IMG/VR virus record: IMGVR_UViG_3300001765_000034
Location: 20,150-84,149 of that record
Strand: one strand, 5' to 3'
DNA length: 64,000 bases
Source: a virus
Lineage: Duplodnaviria > Caudoviricetes
Shown here: positions 7,769 to 42,044 of the stretch, piece by piece
How the letters are laid out: every line of letters starts with the position of its first letter
Numbering within the stretch: position 1 is the first letter of the stretch
Translations under genes and position numbers: made by a program
The notes under the pieces: model-generated
What the model saw: only the letters and a program-made list of their open reading frames with translations
Told to the model about the DNA's origin: nothing
The model's database searches: none

Positions 7769-8212
7769 TTATTCGTAAAAAACGACTTTAACACCACATT
7801 CAAGTAACATCTTGTGAGATATCTCTTGTGATTCTACCCATTTTTCTTTATTCTTAGTTGTACATTCTCTTTTACAATATACAACCTTTACTCCTGAATT
7901 GATTATTGCACGACCACAATCTGCACATGGTAATCCGGATGTGAGATAAATTGATGATCCGTCGATAGGTATTCCTACCCGAGCCGCATTATATATTGCG
8001 TTGCGTTCTGCGTGCTCGAAATAGAAGTACTTTATAGGTCTTTCTTGACGCTCGGGAAGATTATCATCTAAACCCCTAGGGAAAGAGTTATAACCCGTAG
8101 AAAGTATCTCCTTGTCCTTCCCAACGATAACTGCGCCTATCTGTGTTGATTGGTCTTTTGATTTGAGTTTAACTTGTTCTGCAATTCCTAAAAAATAATT
8201 ATTCCATTCCAT
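7769..8212 (-). CDS. dCMP deaminase
   Basis: HAERNAI and PCADC zinc-binding motifs, STGYNSFP. Confidence 0.9.
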   Translation of the reverse strand: MEWNNYFLGIAEQVKLKSKDQSTQIGAVIVGKDKEILSTGYNSFPRGLDDNLPERQERPIKYFYFEHAERNAIYNAARVGIPIDGSSIYLTSGLPCADCGRAIINSGVKVVYCKRECTTKNKEKWVESQEISHKMLLECGVKVVFYE

Positions 8213-23011: not shown

Positions 23012-23313
23012 TATGCCACCGGCATTTCTGGGTTTTCTTCACCTTCTACTTCTTCAGGTTCATTTTGGGCTTCAAGAATCTGATCAACTAAATTACCTAC
23101 GGTAACACCCTGATCGAGTAATCCTTTTGCACAATTAATAAACTCTCCAAAATCTGGTCCGTCATTAGTCATAGGTTCACTGTCATCTTGAGTAGAACCA
23201 GCCATTTGTTCTGGACTAGGACCTGTATTCATTACTTGTCCTTCTTGTTCTTTGATTACCTTTTTAATAATGTCGTTAAGCTGACCTTCCGTGATTTTTA
23301 CAATTTTTTTCAT
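23011..23313 (-). CDS. Small acidic hypothetical protein with MKKIVKITE N-terminus
   Basis: 100 aa, late motifs at 23352 and 23370. Confidence 0.7.
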   Translation of the reverse strand: MKKIVKITEGQLNDIIKKVIKEQEGQVMNTGPSPEQMAGSTQDDSEPMTNDGPDFGEFINCAKGLLDQGVTVGNLVDQILEAQNEPEEVEGEENPEMPVA

Positions 23314-30415: not shown

Positions 30416-31141
30416 ATGAAAAAATCGTTAACGGAAGAAGCCCAAAGGATTATGGAGATAATGGGAAAAATGAATTTAACTGAATTAAATGTACGATATA
30501 TGGACCAGTTACTCGATAAAATTAGTAAATCTGGTATGGAATCATTAAGTGATTACGAAAAAGAATCGTTACAAAAACTTTCAAGAGGTGAAGATACAAA
30601 AGAACCGGAAATCCATTCTCTCGGTAAATCTGAAAACACATTGAGGTTTACCACCACCGACCAAAATAATGGCCAACCACTTGCTAGACCAAAAGACGCT
30701 GGACAGACATTCGGTAAAGCCGCTCTTAAAAACGCTTATATACATGGTGAAGCAGCAGAACTTGCTGGATATGATTTACCTGTTTTTATCGATGGTGATT
30801 TATCACAATTAGATAAACCCGTAGAAGAACAAGAAATTAGGATGTTAACCAATAAAGGTGAATATGAGTGCGTTTCTGAGGTAGGCGAAGATGATGGTCG
30901 TCAGGTATATTATCTTGTATTAAAAAAACCAGAAGGTGACGAATCCGATTTTGATGATGAAGTGATGGGACTTAACGAAAATATGTCACAATATAATGTC
31001 TTCAACGATACTGAAATGAGTATTAATGAGGGAAACGCGTTTGTTGGAGCAGCCAAGAAAGCGAAAGAAGATGGAAAAGATAGTTTTGAATTAAATGGAA
31101 AAAAATATAAAGTAACGGTTAAGAAAACCGAACAATATTAA
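30416..31141 (+). CDS. Hypothetical protein (possible internal head protein)
   Basis: Start at ATG 30416, MKKSLTEEAQRIMEIMG N-terminus. Confidence 0.65.
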   Translation: MKKSLTEEAQRIMEIMGKMNLTELNVRYMDQLLDKISKSGMESLSDYEKESLQKLSRGEDTKEPEIHSLGKSENTLRFTTTDQNNGQPLARPKDAGQTFGKAALKNAYIHGEAAELAGYDLPVFIDGDLSQLDKPVEEQEIRMLTNKGEYECVSEVGEDDGRQVYYLVLKKPEGDESDFDDEVMGLNENMSQYNVFNDTEMSINEGNAFVGAAKKAKEDGKDSFELNGKKYKVTVKKTEQY

Positions 31142-31175
31142 AATAACATATATTTATTATATAAAAACCGATAAA

Positions 31176-31532
31176 ATGAAAAAAACGTTAGAAGAACAAA
31201 AAAAGAGAATAACTCAACTTATGAGACCTATTAACGAATTAATTCATGTTAACGATATGGATTTAGACGGTGAAAATACAAATTTTGATTCGTCTCAAGA
31301 ATTAAAACCCATTATGGATCAATTAAAAGATGCAATGAGGAAATATCAAGAACTATCAAAAAGAACACCTGTTCCAGGAACTGGAAGTCCTTATCCGACT
31401 GAAAACCTAAAGGAGTCTTTTTTGAAGTGGATGTCATTTATGTGGGAAAGAGTTAAAGAAGGTAACGATTCCGTTGAAGGACAGCTCAAGAATTACCCTA
31501 TTAAACCTAATGATCCAACAGAAATGAATTAA
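31176..31532 (+). CDS. Hypothetical protein (possible internal head protein)
   Basis: MKKTLEEQKKRITQLM N-terminus, late motif at 31151. Confidence 0.65.
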   Translation: MKKTLEEQKKRITQLMRPINELIHVNDMDLDGENTNFDSSQELKPIMDQLKDAMRKYQELSKRTPVPGTGSPYPTENLKESFLKWMSFMWERVKEGNDSVEGQLKNYPIKPNDPTEMN

Positions 31533-31579
31533 TTTAGTTCTCAATAAAATAAAAATAATTAAACATTTTTTAAAAAACA

Positions 31580-31611
31580 TTTGGCAAATCCAAAAAAATG
31601 ATTTACATTTG
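31580..31611 (+). promoter_or_regulatory. Bacteroidota sigma-A-type promoter of tRNA array 1
   Basis: TTTG at 31580-31583 and TACATTTG at 31604-31611, 20-nt spacing. Confidence 0.75.
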
Positions 31612-31662
31612 TACCATAATTGAGAAAAAACAAAATTTGAACATATTTAATATAAAGAAACA

Positions 31663-31761
31663 ATGAGAAATTTACTCGACATATTATTGGTGGCTGCAGC
31701 GGTTGAAGTCCTATTATGGGCTGATGAGGATGCACGAAAAAATGTCGGGTGTAAAATATAA
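31663..31761 (+). CDS. Leader peptide of tRNA array 1, MRNLLDILLVAAAVEVLLWADEDARKNVGCKI
   Basis: 32-codon ORF with an A-rich upstream region, overlapping attenuator segments 1 and 2. Confidence 0.7.
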   Translation: MRNLLDILLVAAAVEVLLWADEDARKNVGCKI

Positions 31762-31819
31762 CTATTTACATACATGTTCTACTTAAAGAACCCGACATCT
31801 ACCAAGAGTCGGGTTTTTT
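31671..31819 (+). promoter_or_regulatory. Four-segment transcription attenuator upstream of tRNA array 1
   Basis: 1 ACTCGACAT 31674-82; 2 ATGTCGGGT 31742-50; 3 AACCCGACAT 31789-98; 4 GTCGGGTT 31808-15 plus T-run; 1:2, 2:3 and 3:4 are all complementary. Confidence 0.75.
31789..31819 (+). terminator. Attenuator terminator (3:4)
   Basis: AACCCGAC/GTCGGGTT stem with inner TCT/AGA pairs, followed by a T-run. Confidence 0.85.
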
Positions 31820-31836
31820 GTTTTTAGGTATGTATT

Positions 31837-31848
31837 GTTCTTTGACAT
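31837..31848 (+). promoter_or_regulatory. boxA-like antitermination element
   Basis: GTTCTTTGACAT, identical copy at 34589, resembles rrn boxA (GCTCTTTAACA). Confidence 0.55.
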
Positions 31849-31859
31849 GATGGAAATTT

Positions 31860-31933
31860 AGTGCGTTAGTTCAGTTGGCTAGAATGCCGCCCTGTCACGG
31901 CGGAGGTCACGGGTTCGAGCCCCGTACGCACTG
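31860..31933 (+). tRNA. tRNA-Asp(GUC)
   Basis: AGTGCGT/ACGCACT acceptor, CCGCC-CTGTCAC-GGCGG anticodon arm, TTCGAGC T-loop; no encoded CCA. Confidence 0.95.
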
Positions 31934-32045
31934 CAATCTCAACCGAAAGTAAGTAGGTTACTGGTGAAGCGGGGGTGAGGACCCTAAGCTGATGGGTTCG
32001 AAGCCCACCAGCGCATGAAAAGCAAAAAACAGTTTGGGGATTATC

Positions 32046-32116
32046 GAGGCCGTCGTATAATGGCTAGTAGTACCGCCCTGTCACGGCGGAGGAGGGGTTC
32101 GAATCCCACGGTCTCG
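32046..32116 (+). tRNA. tRNA-Asp(GUC), second copy
   Basis: GAGGCCG/CGGTCTC acceptor, same anticodon arm, short variable loop. Confidence 0.85.
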
Positions 32117-32118
32117 GC

Positions 32119-32288
32119 TATTCTTTAGTGTAATTGAGTTAGGATTGAAAGGAGTCATGACCTGGAGATTACTATACGAAGAAACATCAATCCTGTAATC
32201 ACGGCCGGGGTTATTAGGGGAGATGATTTTTAGTGAGAGCATACCGGGCATGCGGCTCGGAGGTGAGGTTAGAGACCTTAAAGAATAA
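32119..32288 (+). ncRNA. tRNA-like element with about 100 nt inserted in the D-loop
   Basis: TATTCTT/AAGAATA acceptor, GTGT/GCAT D-stem, CCGGG-CATGCGG-CTCGG arm, TGAGG-TTAGAGA-CCTTA T-like arm. Confidence 0.4.
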
Positions 32289-32328
32289 AAAATACTGTGT
32301 TAGGTAAATGGTAATAAATGTTAAAACA

Positions 32329-32439
32329 ATGAAGAAGAAAGAAACGTCTGGAAATTCTAGACAAAAAGTAGATTTCAAAGTAATTCCAAAAGAAGAACTT
32401 GAAAAAAATCGAAGTAAGGCATATGATTACTTGATTTAA
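32329..32439 (+). CDS. Small basic ORF within tRNA array (36 aa)
   Basis: MKKKETSGNSRQKVDFKVIPKEELEKNRSKAYDYLI with an A-rich upstream region. Confidence 0.4.
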   Translation: MKKKETSGNSRQKVDFKVIPKEELEKNRSKAYDYLI

Positions 32440-32454
32440 GTATGGTATTTAAAC

Positions 32455-32528
32455 GCTGCGTTAGGCAAATTGGTTAAGCCGTCAGACCTTCAATCTGAAG
32501 ATTAGGGGTTCGACCCCCCTACGCAGTA
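32455..32528 (+). tRNA. tRNA-Glu(UUC), C33 variant
   Basis: GCTGCGT/ACGCAGT acceptor, TCAGA-CCTTCAA-TCTGA arm. Confidence 0.88.
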
Positions 32529-32620
32529 CGAGGTTCAGTGTGAAATAGAAAGGTTTCTGAGGTTTGTTCATACTGAGGTTCAGTATAACCTTGATTATAG
32601 GTCAAAAAAAATCTCGCCAC

Positions 32621-32692
32621 GCTCGGTTCGTCTAACGGTCAGGACAAATGGTTTTCATCCATTAAATAGGAGTTCGATTCTCCTACCGAGTA
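32621..32692 (+). tRNA. tRNA-Glu(UUC)
   Basis: GCTCGGT/ACCGAGT acceptor, AATGG-TTTTCAT-CCATT arm. Confidence 0.93.
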
Positions 32693-32735
32693 CTTTAATT
32701 TTTTGTATTCTCTTAGTATTTATTTTAAACATTAT

Positions 32736-32820
32736 GCTCCTTTAGCTCAGCGGTCAAGAGCACCTGTTTTACAAGCAGGAGGCGAATAGTATCACGGTGG
32801 TTCGAATCCATCAAGGAGTA
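32736..32820 (+). tRNA. tRNA-Val(UAC) with long variable region
   Basis: GCTCCTT/AAGGAGT acceptor, CCTGT-TTTACAA-GCAGG arm, 16-nt variable region. Confidence 0.88.
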
Positions 32821-32939
32821 CATACGGTTAGGACCGTTATAGCTACGGCTATTAGGGGTGGGATGTTCGCTGCTGACCACCCCTTTATTTTAATTATCCC
32901 ACAAATTTTATAGATAGATGAACAAAGAGATTAAATAAT

Positions 32940-33023
32940 CTCGAAGTGGCGGAATTGGTAGACGCGCTAGCCTAAGGAGCTAGTTCCCGAAAGGGAGTGT
33001 GGGTTCGAGTCCCACCTTCGAGA
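32940..33023 (+). tRNA. tRNA-Leu(AAG)
   Basis: CTCGAAG/CTTCGAG acceptor, CTAGC-CTAAGGA-GCTAG arm, TCCC-GAAA-GGGA variable arm. Confidence 0.92.
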
Positions 33024-33164
33024 CAAAAGGTTCATGACGGAACTAAGCAGATGTTGACCGCGTAACCTGTGCCGAGTGTTCTTGGATGTGAAGGAGTAAT
33101 ACCTTCAGACTCATTATGTGGATCTGCAAAAGCGTAATGGTTGAACTACTAAAAAGGCACAAAT

Positions 33165-33248
33165 GCAGACGTGGCGGAATTGGTAGACGCGCCAGACTTA
33201 GGATCTGGTGCCCGGAAGGGCGTGTGGGTTCGAGTCCCACCTTCTGTA
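33165..33248 (+). tRNA. tRNA-Leu(UAG)
   Basis: CCAGA-CTTAGGA-TCTGG arm, class II variable arm. Confidence 0.93.
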
Positions 33249-33303
33249 CGTTTAGACCGTTTAGAATTTTTATTAGTACTGAAGTAGCGTAGAAAATTCA
33301 CTT

Positions 33304-33375
33304 GGGGAATTCGTATAGTGGCTATTATAATTGCCTTGCACGCAATGGACGGGGTTTCGATTACCCCATTCTCCA
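33304..33375 (+). tRNA. tRNA-Ala(UGC)
   Basis: GGGGAAT/ATTCTCC acceptor with G3:U70, ATTGC-CTTGCAC-GCAAT arm. Confidence 0.92.
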
Positions 33376-33403
33376 CTTTGACGGTTCGGAAAGACGAACA
33401 AAC

Positions 33404-33478
33404 GCGGGTGTAGCTCAGCTGGCTAGAGCGTCTGATTTGCAATCAGAAGGTCGTGGGTTCGAAGCCCACTACTCTGCA
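33404..33478 (+). tRNA. tRNA-Ala(UGC), second copy with bulged acceptor
   Basis: TCTGA-TTTGCAA-TCAGA arm, G3:U pair, one extra nucleotide in the 3' acceptor strand. Confidence 0.8.
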
Positions 33479-33594
33479 CAGGAGGGGTAGATTTATCAGG
33501 AGTCCTATTGATACGGATGAATACCCAGCATGGTGTGGTTACTATTTAAAATGAAACCGTCAGCAAAACTACATACGATGAAAAAGTAACAAAT

Positions 33595-33674
33595 GGCTCT
33601 GTGGATTATGTAAACTGGCACAGCTAACGGGCTTAAACCCCGATCTTTTGTGGGTTCGAGTCCCACCAGGGCTA
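33595..33674 (+). tRNA. Atypical tRNA with UAA (Leu) anticodon
   Basis: GGCTCTG/CAGGGCT acceptor, CGGG-CTTAAAC-CCCG arm, normal T arm; 7-nt connector before the D stem; no long variable arm. Confidence 0.7.
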
Positions 33675-33680
33675 CAATTA

Positions 33681-33814
33681 TATTTCGTGGTGGAATTGGT
33701 ATACACACCTGACTGAATCCCAAAAATGGATTACCTATATGCGGGCTGGATCGGGCGTTTAAGTAGTAAGGTATTCTACGAAAGAAATTGCGGGTTCGAG
33801 TCCCGTCGAAATGT
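33681..33814 (+). tRNA. Class II tRNA body with about 50 nt inserted in the anticodon loop (intron-like or pseudo-tRNA)
   Basis: TATTTCG/CGAAATG acceptor, GTG-GAATTGGTATA-CAC D arm, GCGGG-TTCGAGT-CCCGT T arm; anticodon arm interrupted. Confidence 0.55.
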
Positions 33815-33822
33815 AATTATTC

Positions 33823-33902
33823 GGCTCTGTGGATTATGTAAACTGGCACAGCTAACCGGCTCAAACCCGGATCTTTTGTGGGTTCGATTCCCACCAGGGC
33901 TA
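33823..33902 (+). tRNA. Atypical tRNA with CAA (Leu) anticodon, twin of 33595-33674
   Basis: Same body apart from one T-loop base, CCGG-CTCAAAC-CCGG arm. Confidence 0.7.
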
Positions 33903-33944
33903 CTATATTTTTGATTTTTTCCATATTTATAATAAACTGAAAGT

Positions 33945-34121
33945 ATGTGGCAATATAAACGTATTGGATATCAATTTCATTTATTAAGAGACATGGAAGC
34001 TCAACTAAATAAAGATGGTGAGGATGGTTGGGAAATCATCTATTATACCGAAACAAAACCTGTAAAATTATCTGATTATTATGTCTCAGATATACTTTAC
34101 AAAAAATACGTCAATTGCTGA
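33945..34121 (+). CDS. DUF4177-like small protein
   Basis: MWQYK...LNKDGEDGWEII pattern; late motif at 33924; 3' end overlaps tRNA-Trp. Confidence 0.6.
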   Translation: MWQYKRIGYQFHLLRDMEAQLNKDGEDGWEIIYYTETKPVKLSDYYVSDILYKKYVNC

Positions 34122-34190
34122 GTGGTTAAAAGCGTTGGTCTCCAAAACCAATCTCGAAAGAGTTCGTGGGTTCGAATCCTACTTGGCGTG
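34108..34190 (+). tRNA. tRNA-Trp(CCA) with long variable arm
   Basis: ACGTCAA/TTGGCGT acceptor, G73, TTGGT-CTCCAAA-ACCAA arm, CTC-GAAA-GAG variable hairpin. Confidence 0.88.
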
Positions 34191-34307
34191 CAAAAATTTC
34201 CATCTAGTCTGTATTAACATTAACTATTAGAAATGAGGAGATTACATTAAGTTAATAATTAACTTAAATAAAAAATCTTTAATTTAATAAGAAAGTTTAA
34301 CTTTTAC

Positions 34308-34338
34308 TTGGTATTTATAATTTTATTACATATATTTG
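34308..34338 (+). promoter_or_regulatory. Promoter region of tRNA array 2 (host-type -7 box plus late motif)
   Basis: TTG at 34308-10, TATTTATA at 34312-19, TATATTTG at 34331-38. Confidence 0.7.
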
Positions 34339-34360
34339 TACAGAATTAATATTTGAAACA

Positions 34361-34441
34361 ATGAGAACTTTATTACATCAGCGCCCCCAAGGACAACCAC
34401 CAGTGGTTGAACGGGAGACTTGTGTTCTAAATTTTTCGTAA
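34361..34441 (+). CDS. Leader peptide of tRNA array 2, MRTLLHQRPQGQPPVVERETCVLNFS
   Basis: 26-codon ORF whose start context GAAACAATGAGAA is identical to leader 1. Confidence 0.7.
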   Translation: MRTLLHQRPQGQPPVVERETCVLNFS

Positions 34442-34500
34442 TTCGAGAGTTTTTAGATTAGACAAAAGAAACCCCGTTCAGTAATGAATGGGGTTTTTTT
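34383..34500 (+). promoter_or_regulatory. Transcription attenuator upstream of tRNA array 2
   Basis: 1:2 hairpin CAACCA/TGGTTG (34394-99/34404-09); 2:3 TGAACGGG/CCCGTTCA (34408-15/34473-80); 3:4 terminator. Confidence 0.72.
34469..34500 (+). terminator. Attenuator terminator (3:4)
   Basis: AAACCCCGTTCA-GTAA-TGAATGGGGTTT followed by a T-run. Confidence 0.85.
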
Positions 34501-34508
34501 ATTTAAAA

Positions 34509-34583
34509 CTGGGTGTATTGCAGATGGTTATACTACCGTGCCCTGGAAGCACGGGTCCGCAGGTTCGAATCCTGCCACCCAGA
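34509..34583 (+). tRNA. tRNA-Pro(UGG), C33/A37 variant
   Basis: CTGGGTG/CACCCAG acceptor, A73, CGTGC-CCTGGAA-GCACG arm. Confidence 0.88.
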
Positions 34584-34588
34584 CGATT

Positions 34589-34600
34589 GTTCTTTGACAT
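34589..34600 (+). promoter_or_regulatory. boxA-like antitermination element
   Basis: GTTCTTTGACAT, identical to 31837-31848. Confidence 0.55.
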
Positions 34601-34605
34601 TTAAT

Positions 34606-34692
34606 GCACCTGTATCCCCCTAGTCTTCGAAACTTTCGAAACTAGAGAGCGGTAATTGGATGAGAATATGGGTTCGAATCCCTTCAGGTGTA
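34606..34692 (+). ncRNA. tRNA-like element with rearranged arms and a UCG anticodon-like loop
   Basis: GCACCTG/CAGGTGT acceptor, TTCGAAT T-loop; CTAGT-CTTCGAA-ACT(AG) directly after the acceptor, 9-nt duplication TTCGAAACT, GGTAATTGG afterwards. Confidence 0.5.
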
Positions 34693-34698
34693 CAATTC

Positions 34699-34770
34699 GC
34701 ACCCGTAGTTCAATGGATAGAACACTAGACTACGGATCTTGAGATTGAGGTTCGAGTCCTCCCGGGTGTA
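34699..34770 (+). tRNA. tRNA-Arg(ACG)
   Basis: GCACCCG/CGGGTGT acceptor, CTAGA-CTACGGA-TCTTG arm. Confidence 0.9.
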
Positions 34771-34828
34771 CAATTATCGGTTAAATAACCTATAAATATA
34801 ATTTATCGGTTGTGGAGACGATAAATTT

Positions 34829-34913
34829 CGGGATGTGGTGTAGTTGGTAGCATACGTGTTTTGGGAACATGGGGGAACGCAAGTCATCGCAGGTTCGAGT
34901 CCTGCCATCCCGA
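34829..34913 (+). tRNA. tRNA-Pro(UGG) with long variable region
   Basis: CGGGATG/CATCCCG acceptor, CGTGT-TTTGGGA-ACATG arm with G37. Confidence 0.9.
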
Positions 34914-34916
34914 CTA

Positions 34917-35054
34917 AAGTTAATCGTCCGTCATATGAAGATTTAATAACAGAAATAAATATTTTTGGATACTCAGCAACTGGCAGAAAATATGGAGTAA
35001 GTGACGTGTCAATAAAAAAATGGAAAGAAAAATATGAAAAAGATTTAATAAATG
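34917..35054 (+). pseudogene. Remnant HTH domain of an HNH-type homing endonuclease
   Basis: Reading frame KVNRPSYEDLITEINIFGYSATGRKYGVSDVSIKKWK without its own start or nuclease domain, between tRNA-Pro and tRNA-His. Confidence 0.5.
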
Positions 35055-35140
35055 GTGTATGTAGCCGGTAATTGGTGTCCGACCAGCCTGTGAAGCTGGA
35101 ATCTGAAAAGACCATGTGGGTTCAAGTCCCATCATTCACC
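35054..35140 (+). tRNA. tRNA-His(GUG) with long variable arm
   Basis: G-1:C73 identity pair, CCAGC-CTGTGAA-GCTGG arm, TCT-GAAA-AGA variable hairpin. Confidence 0.88.
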
Positions 35141-35182
35141 CAAAAGCGTGATATTTTGATTTATCACTTTATTACGCGATAT

Positions 35183-35255
35183 TGTCTCGTAGTGTAATTG
35201 GTAACATGTCTGGCTCTGGACCAGAAGACTGGGGAATCGTACTCCTCCGAGACAA
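35183..35255 (+). tRNA. tRNA-Gln(CUG), atypical T-loop ATCGTAC
   Basis: TGTCTCG/CGAGACA acceptor, TCTGG-CTCTGGA-CCAGA arm. Confidence 0.85.
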
Positions 35256-35264
35256 CAACTATAT

Positions 35265-35338
35265 TGCCCTGTGGTGTAATTGGTTAACATACGGCACTTT
35301 GGATGCTGTGACTCAAGGTTCGAACCCTTGCGGGGCAA
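35265..35338 (+). tRNA. tRNA-Gln(UUG)
   Basis: TGCCCTG/CGGGGCA acceptor, CGGCA-CTTTGGA-TGCTG arm. Confidence 0.93.
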
Positions 35339-35344
35339 CAATAT

Positions 35345-35430
35345 TCTCCTCTGGCAGAATGGACAAATGCGCCAGACTTTGACTCTGGTACCCATATTCG
35401 GGTTTGTAGGTTCGAGTCCTACGGGGAGGA
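35345..35430 (+). tRNA. Class II-type tRNA with UUG (Gln) anticodon
   Basis: TCTCCTC/GGGGAGG acceptor, CCAGA-CTTTGAC-TCTGG arm, ACCC-ATATTC-GGGT variable arm. Confidence 0.8.
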
Positions 35431-35472
35431 CAAATTTGGAAATGTCAAATATTATACTTATCTTTGTCAAAT

Positions 35473-35556
35473 GCCGAGATGATGGAATTGGCAGACATGC
35501 AGCACTTAAAATGCTGTGGGCATTTGCTCGTGTGGGTTCGAGTCCCATTCTCGGTA
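35473..35556 (+). tRNA. tRNA-Leu(UAA), canonical
   Basis: GCCGAGA/TCTCGGT acceptor, CAGCA-CTTAAAA-TGCTG arm, class II variable arm. Confidence 0.95.
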
Positions 35557-35575
35557 CAATAATAAATGATTAGAT

Positions 35576-36313
35576 ATGTACATCATTTCAAAAACGAAAG
35601 ATTATTACGATGGGGTTGTCGGTACAGTGGGTATCGATAAGTCAATTGTATATGATCGCAACACCGTAATTAACGAAAATAGGGAGACATTTATAGATCC
35701 ATTTTCGGCGAGAAAGGGTTGGCATAAAAGGAATATTACTCCATTTCATAACATATGTTCTCACTCAATTAAAAAGGGGTCGAGATATGAAGATGGCTCG
35801 CCATTCATTGTTGGGTTTTGTGGAAAATTATACATAGGGTGGAAATTTTATAAAGAGGATTTTGATAGTTTTTATGGCACGAAATTCGAAACTTTCATCA
35901 CTTATGATTTAGAATTCATCAAAAATGAGATAACACATAAGAGTTGGTATGGTAATTTAATTGATGACATCAATTACATTTTAACATATAATCCATTGGA
36001 AATCTTTAGAAAACTAAAAACCCCGATATTTATATACGATAGTGATTATGACAGAAAGTTCATTAAAAGATACCACCGTAATGATGTTCTCATTACAAAC
36101 CCCATACTAAAAGATTATGAGTTTTATAAAGTAATGGATAGCTTTACTGCTTTCCAAGAAATTCAAATGTTTATGGGTGGAGTATTAGGTATCGGAGAAA
36201 AAGAAATCGTTGAAGTTGAGGACAAATATAAAATCTCCCAACATGGATTCAACGAATTTAGTTTTCGTAGAGACAAAGCAAATGGAAAAAAAAGACCACA
36301 ATCCCAAAGATAA
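35576..36313 (+). CDS. Hypothetical phage protein
   Basis: 245-aa ORF directly after tRNA array 2. Confidence 0.75.
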   Translation: MYIISKTKDYYDGVVGTVGIDKSIVYDRNTVINENRETFIDPFSARKGWHKRNITPFHNICSHSIKKGSRYEDGSPFIVGFCGKLYIGWKFYKEDFDSFYGTKFETFITYDLEFIKNEITHKSWYGNLIDDINYILTYNPLEIFRKLKTPIFIYDSDYDRKFIKRYHRNDVLITNPILKDYEFYKVMDSFTAFQEIQMFMGGVLGIGEKEIVEVEDKYKISQHGFNEFSFRRDKANGKKRPQSQR

Positions 36314-36482
36314 TAAACCCCAAATAGGTTTAATGGAGTATGTTCGATTGCAACAAAATGTGACCGAAGATATTGATATGCTTAAGGCATTATCGCGACC
36401 ATGGATACCACCCAACACAGATAAAATTTACTGTGGATCAGACCTTGCAGACCAACTACAAGGTCTTTTGAATTTAAAATAA
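36282..36482 (+). CDS. Small hypothetical protein
   Basis: Start placed at ATG 36282 (MEKKDH), 66 aa. Confidence 0.5.
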   Translation: MEKKDHNPKDNKPQIGLMEYVRLQQNVTEDIDMLKALSRPWIPPNTDKIYCGSDLADQLQGLLNLK

Positions 36483-36516
36483 TAGGTGATTTTCTTGGAA
36501 AATAAGAAAATATTGT

Positions 36517-42020: not shown

Positions 42021-42044
42021 TACATTTGTACTGTTCTTTGAAAA
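42021..42044 (+). promoter_or_regulatory. Host-type -7 box and boxA-like element upstream of tmRNA
   Basis: TACATTTG 42021-28; GTTCTTTGAAAA 42033-44. Confidence 0.6.

Follow-up and report, generated by a model that had tools for sequence, protein, structure and literature searches.

How phage tRNA genes are regulated, and why some phages keep large arrays of them sorted by isotype, is poorly understood. The 64,000-nucleotide stretch of phage DNA analysed here (the window; bases 20150–84149 of the 84-kb IMG/VR virus record IMGVR_UViG_3300001765_000034) contains two tRNA arrays, and the second of these stands directly behind a short ORF and an intrinsic terminator, which raises the question of what decides whether RNA polymerase reaches the tRNA genes. 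In the absence of expression or reporter data, we consider it likely that the ORF and the terminator form a ribosome-mediated (leader-peptide) transcription attenuator that gates the tRNA operon, and that the phage probably withholds its Pro/Arg/His/Gln/Leu tRNAs unless the codons that these tRNAs read are being translated slowly.

The source record is rated 27% complete by CheckV. Its relatives are about 200–365 kb in size (203–365 kb), one of them having terminal repeats and a rating of 100% complete, and the record is therefore a fragment of a giant phage. The G+C content of the window is 33.7%, and only six of its 45 long ORFs show a Shine–Dalgarno-like core. From this scarcity, together with promoters carrying a TAnnTTTG box, we infer that the host expression system is of the Bacteroidota type. 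No close cultured phage was found; an INPHARED blastn search with the array region gave generic tRNA matches only.

All parts of the unit in front of array 2, which we call attenuator 2, lie on the + strand. A Bacteroidota-type promoter (34308–34338) has a −33-like TTGG/TTTG region and a −7 box, TATATTTG, at 34331–34338 that fits TAnnTTTG; in 39 of the 41 orthologs described below such a box lies no more than 70 nt upstream of the leader ATG, against 0.05 expected per sequence. The leader ORF (34361–34441, 26 codons) reads MRTLLHQRPQGQPPVVERETCVLNFS and lacks a Shine–Dalgarno sequence, as is usual in this phage. Codons 4–14 (34370–34402), TTA TTA CAT CAG CGC CCC CAA GGA CAA CCA CCA, constitute the regulatory run, in which 10 of the 11 codons are read by downstream tRNAs, GGA (Gly) being without a cognate tRNA in array 2. 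Segment 1 consists of CCC and CAACCA within the Pro and Gln codons (34385–34399) and would, in the absence of a ribosome, form the 1:2 hairpin with segment 2, CAACCA at 34394–34399 facing TGGTTG at 34404–34409. Segment 2, TTGAACGGGA (34407–34416), encodes Val-Glu-Arg-Glu and is the 5′ strand of the putative antiterminator: within it, TGAACGGG (34408–34415) is the exact complement of CCCGTTCA (34473–34480) in the terminator 5′ arm, the duplex between segment 2 and that arm having a computed energy of −13.7 kcal/mol. The arm itself (segment 3, 34472–34480) is thus common to terminator and antiterminator. The intrinsic terminator (34469–34503) comprises AAACCCCGTTCA, the loop gtaa, TGAATGGGGTTT and a T-run, and forms a 12-bp hairpin of −17.2 kcal/mol; a consensus terminator scan did not pick it up.

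The first gene of array 2, tRNA-Pro(UGG) (34509–34584), starts 8 nt past the end of the T-run at 34503. It is followed on the same strand by tRNA-Arg(ACG) (34699–34771), a second tRNA-Pro(UGG) (34829–34914), tRNA-His(GUG) (35055–35141), tRNA-Gln(CUG) (35183–35256), two copies of tRNA-Gln(UUG) (35265–35339 and 35345–35431) and tRNA-Leu(UAA) (35473–35557), all identified with ARAGORN and Rfam. The genes 3′ of the terminator are these eight tRNA genes and not biosynthetic enzymes or a synthetase, and so lie outside the classical scope of attenuation. A preliminary description of the locus had recognized the leader, codons 4–14, the pairing segments and the tRNAs, and each was recovered at the same position from the sequence and by ARAGORN. 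A further TAnnTTTG box, TATCTTTG, lies at 35459–35466, 7 nt before tRNA-Leu(UAA); judged by this motif alone, the last gene of array 2 may have its own promoter, independent of the attenuator.

Several other elements lie in and around the arrays. A boxA-like element, TGTTCTTTGACA, occupies 34588–34599 (+). The motif (T)GTTCTTTGA(C/A)A has four copies in the window, all on the + strand (23246–23258, 31836–31848, 34588–34600 and 42032–42044), two of which lie just past attenuator 1 and just past the first tRNA of array 2. Among relatives, 64 of 124 terminator candidates have TYCTTTGA on their 3′ side (no further away than 250 nt, usually at 4–23 nt), where 0.03 would be expected. Its function is inferred: the motif may load Nus factors and so keep polymerase processive on untranslated tRNA transcripts.

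An aberrant tRNA-like element is present at 34606–34692 (+), scoring 25.5 bits with the Rfam tRNA model, below the gathering score. It carries a 9-nt tandem duplication (TTCGAAACT twice, 34626–34643) that holds an Arg(UCG)-like anticodon loop; with one of the copies deleted, a CTAGT/ACTAG stem results, with the loop CTTCGAA and the anticodon UCG (Arg). A D-arm-like stretch comes after the anticodon-type stem, not before it. ARAGORN found nothing in this region at default settings, and intron or relaxed settings (34585–34700) gave no credible tRNA. Relatives carry an intact tRNA-Arg(UCG) gene, of which the element may be a degraded or rearranged version, although aligning it with those genes gave no useful information. 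Five tRNAs of isotypes that normally have short variable regions are 84–87 nt long (Val 32736–32821, Trp 34108–34191, Pro 34829–34914, His 35055–35141 and Gln 35345–35431), which suggests long variable regions or insertions. Two near-identical tRNA-like repeats (33590–33680 and 33826–33905) have a T-arm and acceptor-like ends; ARAGORN misses both, and Rfam gives only a weak call, within one long match (33681–33814). Homing-endonuclease genes or their remnants lie inside or just 5′ of tRNA arrays in the window (34915–35050) and at relatives' loci L119 (2300–2745) and L132 (850–1450). The remnant in the window is a C-terminal fragment only (...GYSATGRKYGVSDVSIKKWKEKYEK...) and is like the end of the full-length endonuclease-type ORF of L119, which lies there between attenuator and tRNAs.

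Relatives were sought with the 245-aa protein encoded just 3′ of array 2 (35576–36313) as bait. Homologs were found at six loci first and then at 160 more, on viral and metagenome contigs, and an automatic screen for strong terminators followed by tRNAs gave 150 distinct candidates. Exact-pattern scans of viral contigs with the shared start context or with a promoter 18-mer returned mostly chance AT-rich matches and were not used. Xanthomonas phage XaC1, which encodes a distant homolog of the bait, has no tRNAs near it. The unit to which attenuator 2 belongs, the Pro/His/Gln class, is kept in about 40 distinct uncultured relatives, all of them giant phages, and its 41 distinct orthologous leader–terminator units make up alignment A2.

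If the leader is an attenuator, its orthologs would be expected to retain the regulatory codons as the peptide diverges, a comparison already proposed in the preliminary description. This is what was observed. All 41 units keep the ORF and its run of Gln/Pro/His codons despite sequence divergence, and start codon, stop codon and frame are conserved. In 17 length-matched leaders the entropy at codon positions 1, 2 and 3 of the core (codons 7–16) was 0.36, 0.40 and 0.98, respectively. That variation is highest at the third position indicates that the frame is read, isotype identity being held while the codons drift.

The codons of the leader were then compared with the tRNAs of the array. Codons read by array 2 make up 15.6% of phage codons, as compared with 10 of 25 in the leader (binomial P = 0.003). 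The best 11-codon stretch, with its 10 matched codons, was equalled by none of 200,000 simulated 25-codon ORFs, and the leader had the top score of 783 ATG ORFs of 15–60 codons on both strands of the window (the runner-up scored 8); the match noticed earlier by inspection is therefore beyond chance. The TTA at codon 4 is weak evidence, since it falls within an MKNL/MRNL N-terminal motif common to the leaders of other classes. The leader of attenuator 1 behaves similarly towards its own array, with 17 of 31 codons matched (P = 0.002), while cross-matches are low (leader 1 with array 2, 5/31; leader 2 with array 1, 6/25). Attenuator 1 consists of a leader ORF at 31663–31761, MRNLLDILLVAAAVEVLLWADEDARKNVGCKI, and a terminator at 31784–31820, followed by an Asp, Asp, Glu, Glu, Val, Leu, Leu, Ala, Ala ... 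Trp array, and is kept in about 38 relatives. At its stop codon, GTCGGGT is complementary to the terminator arm ACCCGAC.

Leaders in the wider family belong to classes whose sequences are unrelated to one another, namely the Pro/His/Gln class (leaders like MKNLVNIQPQPQQHPQ..EWGNYA) and three further classes. Leaders of the Asp/Glu/Val/Leu/Ala/Trp class resemble MKNLLDILMVAL.AVLLWADAEDKL.SVG. Those of the Lys/Tyr class resemble M.TFGTYYYGKKSYKK.LIGIGN, are rich in Tyr and Lys codons, and occur at L120 (9508–9655), L222, L223, L231, L232, L249, L251 and other loci. The fourth independent class is a T/S/N/I/C/G/F/R leader, MKALLTNINLISSLTSNICGNGISTFNFRRGCIIG..., in one more distant phage (L275, 2751–2943), whose 15-tRNA array reads Thr, Thr, Cys, Ile, Arg, Gly, Leu, Phe, Ser, Ile, Asn, Ser, Arg, Tyr, Gly. 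The ORF of the Lys/Tyr class contains GAATCGGG, which can pair with CCCGATTC, the arm of the terminator; the window has no Lys/Tyr array.

Across these classes the amino acid composition of the leader follows the content of the array behind it. Leaders before Asp/Glu/Val/Leu/Ala/Trp arrays contain 11% D, 6% E, 12% V, 21% L and 10% A and no P or Q; those before Pro/His/Gln arrays contain 9% P, 5% H and 13% Q; and those before Lys/Tyr arrays contain 18% K and 14% Y. For 118 unique leaders, the mean match to the own array was 0.372, as compared with 0.188 (sd 0.013) when leaders and arrays were paired by permutation, a proteome expectation of 0.171 and a value of 0.109 in the other two reading frames. 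Each class also has a segment 2 complementary to its own terminator arm: the pairings reach −15.2, −13.3 and −12.3 kcal/mol, whereas those of shuffled leaders amount to −5 to −8. The inference, originally drawn from the two attenuators of the window, that the architecture is retained independently of sequence thus extends to separate leader classes.

Within the Pro/His/Gln class, such tracking is seen for arginine. Among unique Pro/His/Gln leaders, an Arg codon in the core and a tRNA-Arg in the array occur together in 10 cases, the codon alone in three, the tRNA alone in none and neither in 28 (Fisher 2.6e-7, without correction for relatedness). Of 18 core Arg codons, 17 are CGN and 11 of these CGC, despite a genomic preference for AGR (in phage genes AGA and AGG account for 69% of Arg codons and CGC for 1%), which indicates that the leader is spelt in the codon box that tRNA-Arg(ACG/UCG) of the array decodes. 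Arg-bearing cores take three forms, HQRPQGQPP in the clade of the window, NNGRPQQHP and TLQPRHLQHP. The three exceptions, with an Arg codon and no detectable tRNA-Arg, are L315, L333 and L259. No tRNA-Arg was recovered at L315 or L333, Rfam search included; L315 is, in the protein tree, a near-copy of L319, which has a tRNA-Arg, and the leader peptide of L333 is that of L344, which has one too. On a poorly resolved tree of the single 245-aa protein, the Arg trait requires four changes, at least two of them forced by supported branches, and an independent-pairs test of Arg codon against tRNA-Arg found only 2–4 pairs, with which significance cannot be reached. As the trait needs only 2–4 changes, the association is real but rests on few independent events.

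These codon data bear on an alternative in which the attenuator is real and, like those of hosts, senses amino acid starvation or the general rate of translation, the codon match being a by-product of the sorting of tRNAs by codon box. Leader-peptide attenuators do report charged tRNA, that is, amino acid and tRNA together, and the arrays are indeed sorted, with the CNN box in array 2 and the GNN box plus Leu and Trp in array 1. Sorting alone, however, leaves unexplained why a leader is spelt in the isotypes of its own array and why CGC appears only alongside tRNA-Arg(ACG). In addition, extra tRNA would be no cure for starvation, from which we infer that the feedback makes sense only for tRNA supply; we therefore regard starvation sensing as unlikely, without being able to discard it.

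The RNA pairings on which a switch would depend are themselves under constraint. The antiterminator that the preliminary description had proposed between TGAACGGG and CCCGTTCA is upheld by compensatory changes at two positions: 83:169 is A–U in 38 sequences and G–C in three, and 84:168 is U–A in 34 and C–G in seven, with no unpaired cell at either. Over its eight proposed pairs, 97.4% of the cells of alignment A2 are paired, a value matched by none of 500 shuffles, and sliding the partner by 1–3 columns lowered pairing to 15–62%. The arms read GAACGGG/CCCGTTC in the window, GAATGGG(G)/(C)CCCATTC in most relatives and GAGTGGG/CCCACTC in three. In the terminator, 98% of cells are paired and six pairs covary. 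One terminator pair is a G·U wobble in 22 sequences while the rival antiterminator pair is Watson–Crick in 41/41, which would help the antiterminator to compete.

The evidence for the 1:2 hairpin is weaker. The complementary sequences CAACCA and TGGTTG are present as first described, and when the leader is folded by itself, the minimum free energy structure in 41/41 orthologs pairs GGG(G) of segment 2 with CCC(C) of a Pro codon in the core, with a mean energy of −11.9 kcal/mol as compared with −8.2 kcal/mol for shuffles. However, pairing of this type also arose in 65% of shuffles, and RNAalifold on the leader alone did not find a consensus 1:2 structure, so that the hairpin is only moderately supported.

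Conservation of the unit as a whole weighs on a second alternative, namely that the terminator merely ends an upstream transcript or small mRNA, that the ORF is incidental or encodes a micropeptide with its own function, and that the tRNAs are transcribed independently. Small ORFs are common enough, as the 783 in the window attest, class-1 leaders resemble hydrophobic helices, and tRNA-Leu(UAA), the last gene of array 2, is preceded by what looks like a promoter box. Against this, the gap between terminator and first tRNA, 8 nt in the window and below 50 nt in most relatives, leaves no space for a tRNA-Pro promoter, making that gene dependent on read-through. Nor would an incidental ORF account for the conserved promoter ahead of it, or for a composition that tracks array content across four unrelated leader classes, and the C-terminal part of the supposed micropeptide is constrained at the RNA level, covarying with the terminator. 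Taken together, this leaves the second alternative only a slim chance.

We propose that the attenuator works as follows. Transcription would start at about 34345, from the Bacteroidota-type promoter, and a ribosome would translate the 26-codon leader while RNA polymerase nears the terminator. Slow decoding of the Leu/His/Gln/Arg/Pro codons 4–12 would stall the ribosome on segment 1, leaving segment 2 (34407–34416) free to pair with the terminator 5′ arm (34472–34480). With the antiterminator formed, the terminator hairpin could not form, and polymerase would read through into the Pro-Arg-Pro-His-Gln-Gln-Gln(-Leu) tRNA genes. During fast decoding the ribosome would overrun segment 2, or segment 2 would refold onto segment 1; in either case the terminator would form and the tRNA block would remain unmade. 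As the products of the operon are the tRNAs that read the sensing codons, this amounts to negative feedback on tRNA supply. The anatomy and its conservation, the constraint on coding, the covariation and the agreement between codons and array content are observed; stalling, the kinetics of the switch and the identity of the signal as tRNA abundance, not amino acid supply, are inferred.

The geometry of the proposed stall was modelled with a 30-nt ribosome footprint and constrained folds of a transcript ending just past the 5′ arm. With the A site on any of codons 4–12, all 7–8 antiterminator pairs remained; on codon 13 four remained, and on codons 14–18 none. The model thus predicts a sensing window of about codons 4/5 to 12, which falls on the matched codons. 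A caveat raised at the outset, that a ribosome stalled at codons 13–14 might itself cover segment 2, is borne out, stalls there blocking the antiterminator and those at codons 4–12 leaving it free. The equilibrium fold of the full-length transcript always shows the terminator, as in classical attenuators and as expected if the decision is kinetic. A weak point of the model is that in the ribosome-free transcript before the 3′ arm is made, the antiterminator is preferred at equilibrium; we infer that termination without a stall must need either timed ribosome occupancy or kinetic trapping in the 1:2 hairpin. The position of the stop codon is another weak point. It lies 23 nt past segment 2 in the clade of the window (the window, L300 and L308), 10 nt past it in most relatives and about 33 nt past it in the Lys/Tyr class. 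A ribosome terminating at the 10-nt distance would mask segment 2, whereas one at 23 nt would leave it unmasked; the distance in the Lys/Tyr class indicates that the distant-stop geometry is common in the family.

The same model argues against an arrest by the nascent peptide or by a Pro-Pro pair, which would report EF-P or the state of the ribosome and not tRNA supply. CCA CCA at codons 13–14 and QPQ-type motifs could be read in this way, and sensitivity to EF-P had been suggested for this leader. The Pro-Pro pair is nevertheless missing from most orthologs, a stall on it would cover segment 2 and favour termination, and the Asp/Glu... and Lys/Tyr leader classes are almost without proline. 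The EF-P suggestion is not sustained as a general feature, and we find arrest of this kind very improbable. Direct sensing of tRNA by the leader RNA without translation, through a T-box or another codon–anticodon contact, would suit an element that displays the codons of the tRNAs it regulates, but it is scarcely credible given that Rfam finds no T-box or other cis-regulatory family in 31000–36500 (E ≤ 1), that start codon, stop codon and frame are conserved, that variation is concentrated at third codon positions, and that many different codons stand in a row in place of a single specifier codon.

If leader-peptide attenuation of the tRNA operon is accepted, an answer to the opening question suggests itself: arrays would be expressed as needed, each under the control of a translated element that senses how fast codons are decoded. 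It is possible, although we hold this only tentatively and would not yet wager on it, that giant phages run isotype-sorted tRNA blocks as separately inducible modules, a translated test strip probing one codon after another whether the infected cell still decodes the set and switching replacement tRNAs on only when decoding fails. Poorly matched codon usage, the degradation of host tRNA or anticodon nucleases of the host might each act as a trigger; tRNA-Lys and tRNA-Tyr are species cleaved by such nucleases. If the modular reading is true, the unit would be a tRNA-supply homeostat and possibly an inducible counter-defence, and the design would be a general one, arising independently in Bacteroidota phages and in Caulobacter phages. 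Viral tRNAs are presented as countering tRNA-targeting defences in two reports (PMC11464382, PMC10264068). More broadly, the leaders lead to predictions as to which codons limit a phage in its host, and, as small natural elements, they could serve to report how available particular tRNAs are.

The mechanism proposed is not in itself novel, and a full-text search of the literature did not find leader-peptide attenuation of tRNA genes described. What is new, and is supported by strong comparative evidence without an experimental test, is the application of known leader-peptide attenuation to phage tRNA operons, with leaders that mirror each array. This extends attenuation to tRNA as a product, to phages and to Bacteroidota-type expression signals.

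The T-box resembles the phage unit in that tRNA status selects between terminator and antiterminator upstream of translation-related genes. Its ligand, however, is uncharged tRNA, which it contacts directly by means of a single specifier codon, and it is untranslated, whereas the phage leader is a conserved reading frame without an Rfam T-box match. Closer is the pheST attenuator with its pheM leader, in which a gene of the translation apparatus is controlled by leader-peptide attenuation with feedback via charged tRNA; there the controlled gene encodes a synthetase and the leader responds to just one amino acid, whereas the phage product is tRNAs of several isotypes. A Phe-rich leader ahead of the Escherichia coli tRNA-Phe gene pheV was considered as a precedent and rejected, there being no such ORF upstream of that gene in MG1655.

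A unit of like architecture occurs in a cultured phage, Caulobacter phage CcrColossus (L381, JX100810.1). At 8030–8210, an ORF of 39 codons, MTFSTHKPSTLKPATGAASLAHASLLTPATSKPSLSRSL, in which Thr, Ser, His, Lys, Pro, Leu and Ala are abundant, stands in front of a GC hairpin, GAAGCGGC...GCCGCTTC, and both precede tRNAs annotated Pro, Pro, Lys, Leu, Leu, His, Ala and Ser. Sequence, host phylum and promoter type are unrelated to those of the units described here, and the comparison rests on this one locus, without statistics; it is nevertheless a possible experimental system.

The nearest analogues are the classical leader-peptide attenuators of enterobacteria, trpL, hisL, leuL, pheL and those of ilvGMEDA (Ile/Leu/Val) and thr (Thr/Ile). 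In these, as in the phage unit, a promoter and a short ORF of regulatory codons are followed by an intrinsic terminator that guards the structural genes, and the 1:2, 2:3 and 3:4 pairings exclude one another, the 1:2 pairing of the phage unit being only moderately supported. The ilvGMEDA and thr leaders, being multivalent, come nearest of all, since a single leader senses several amino acids. In contrast to them, the phage element gates tRNA genes and not enzymes, and does so from Bacteroidota-type promoters; in the clade of the window and in the Lys/Tyr class its stop codon lies well downstream of segment 2; and its leader covers up to five isotypes, mirroring the array that it precedes.
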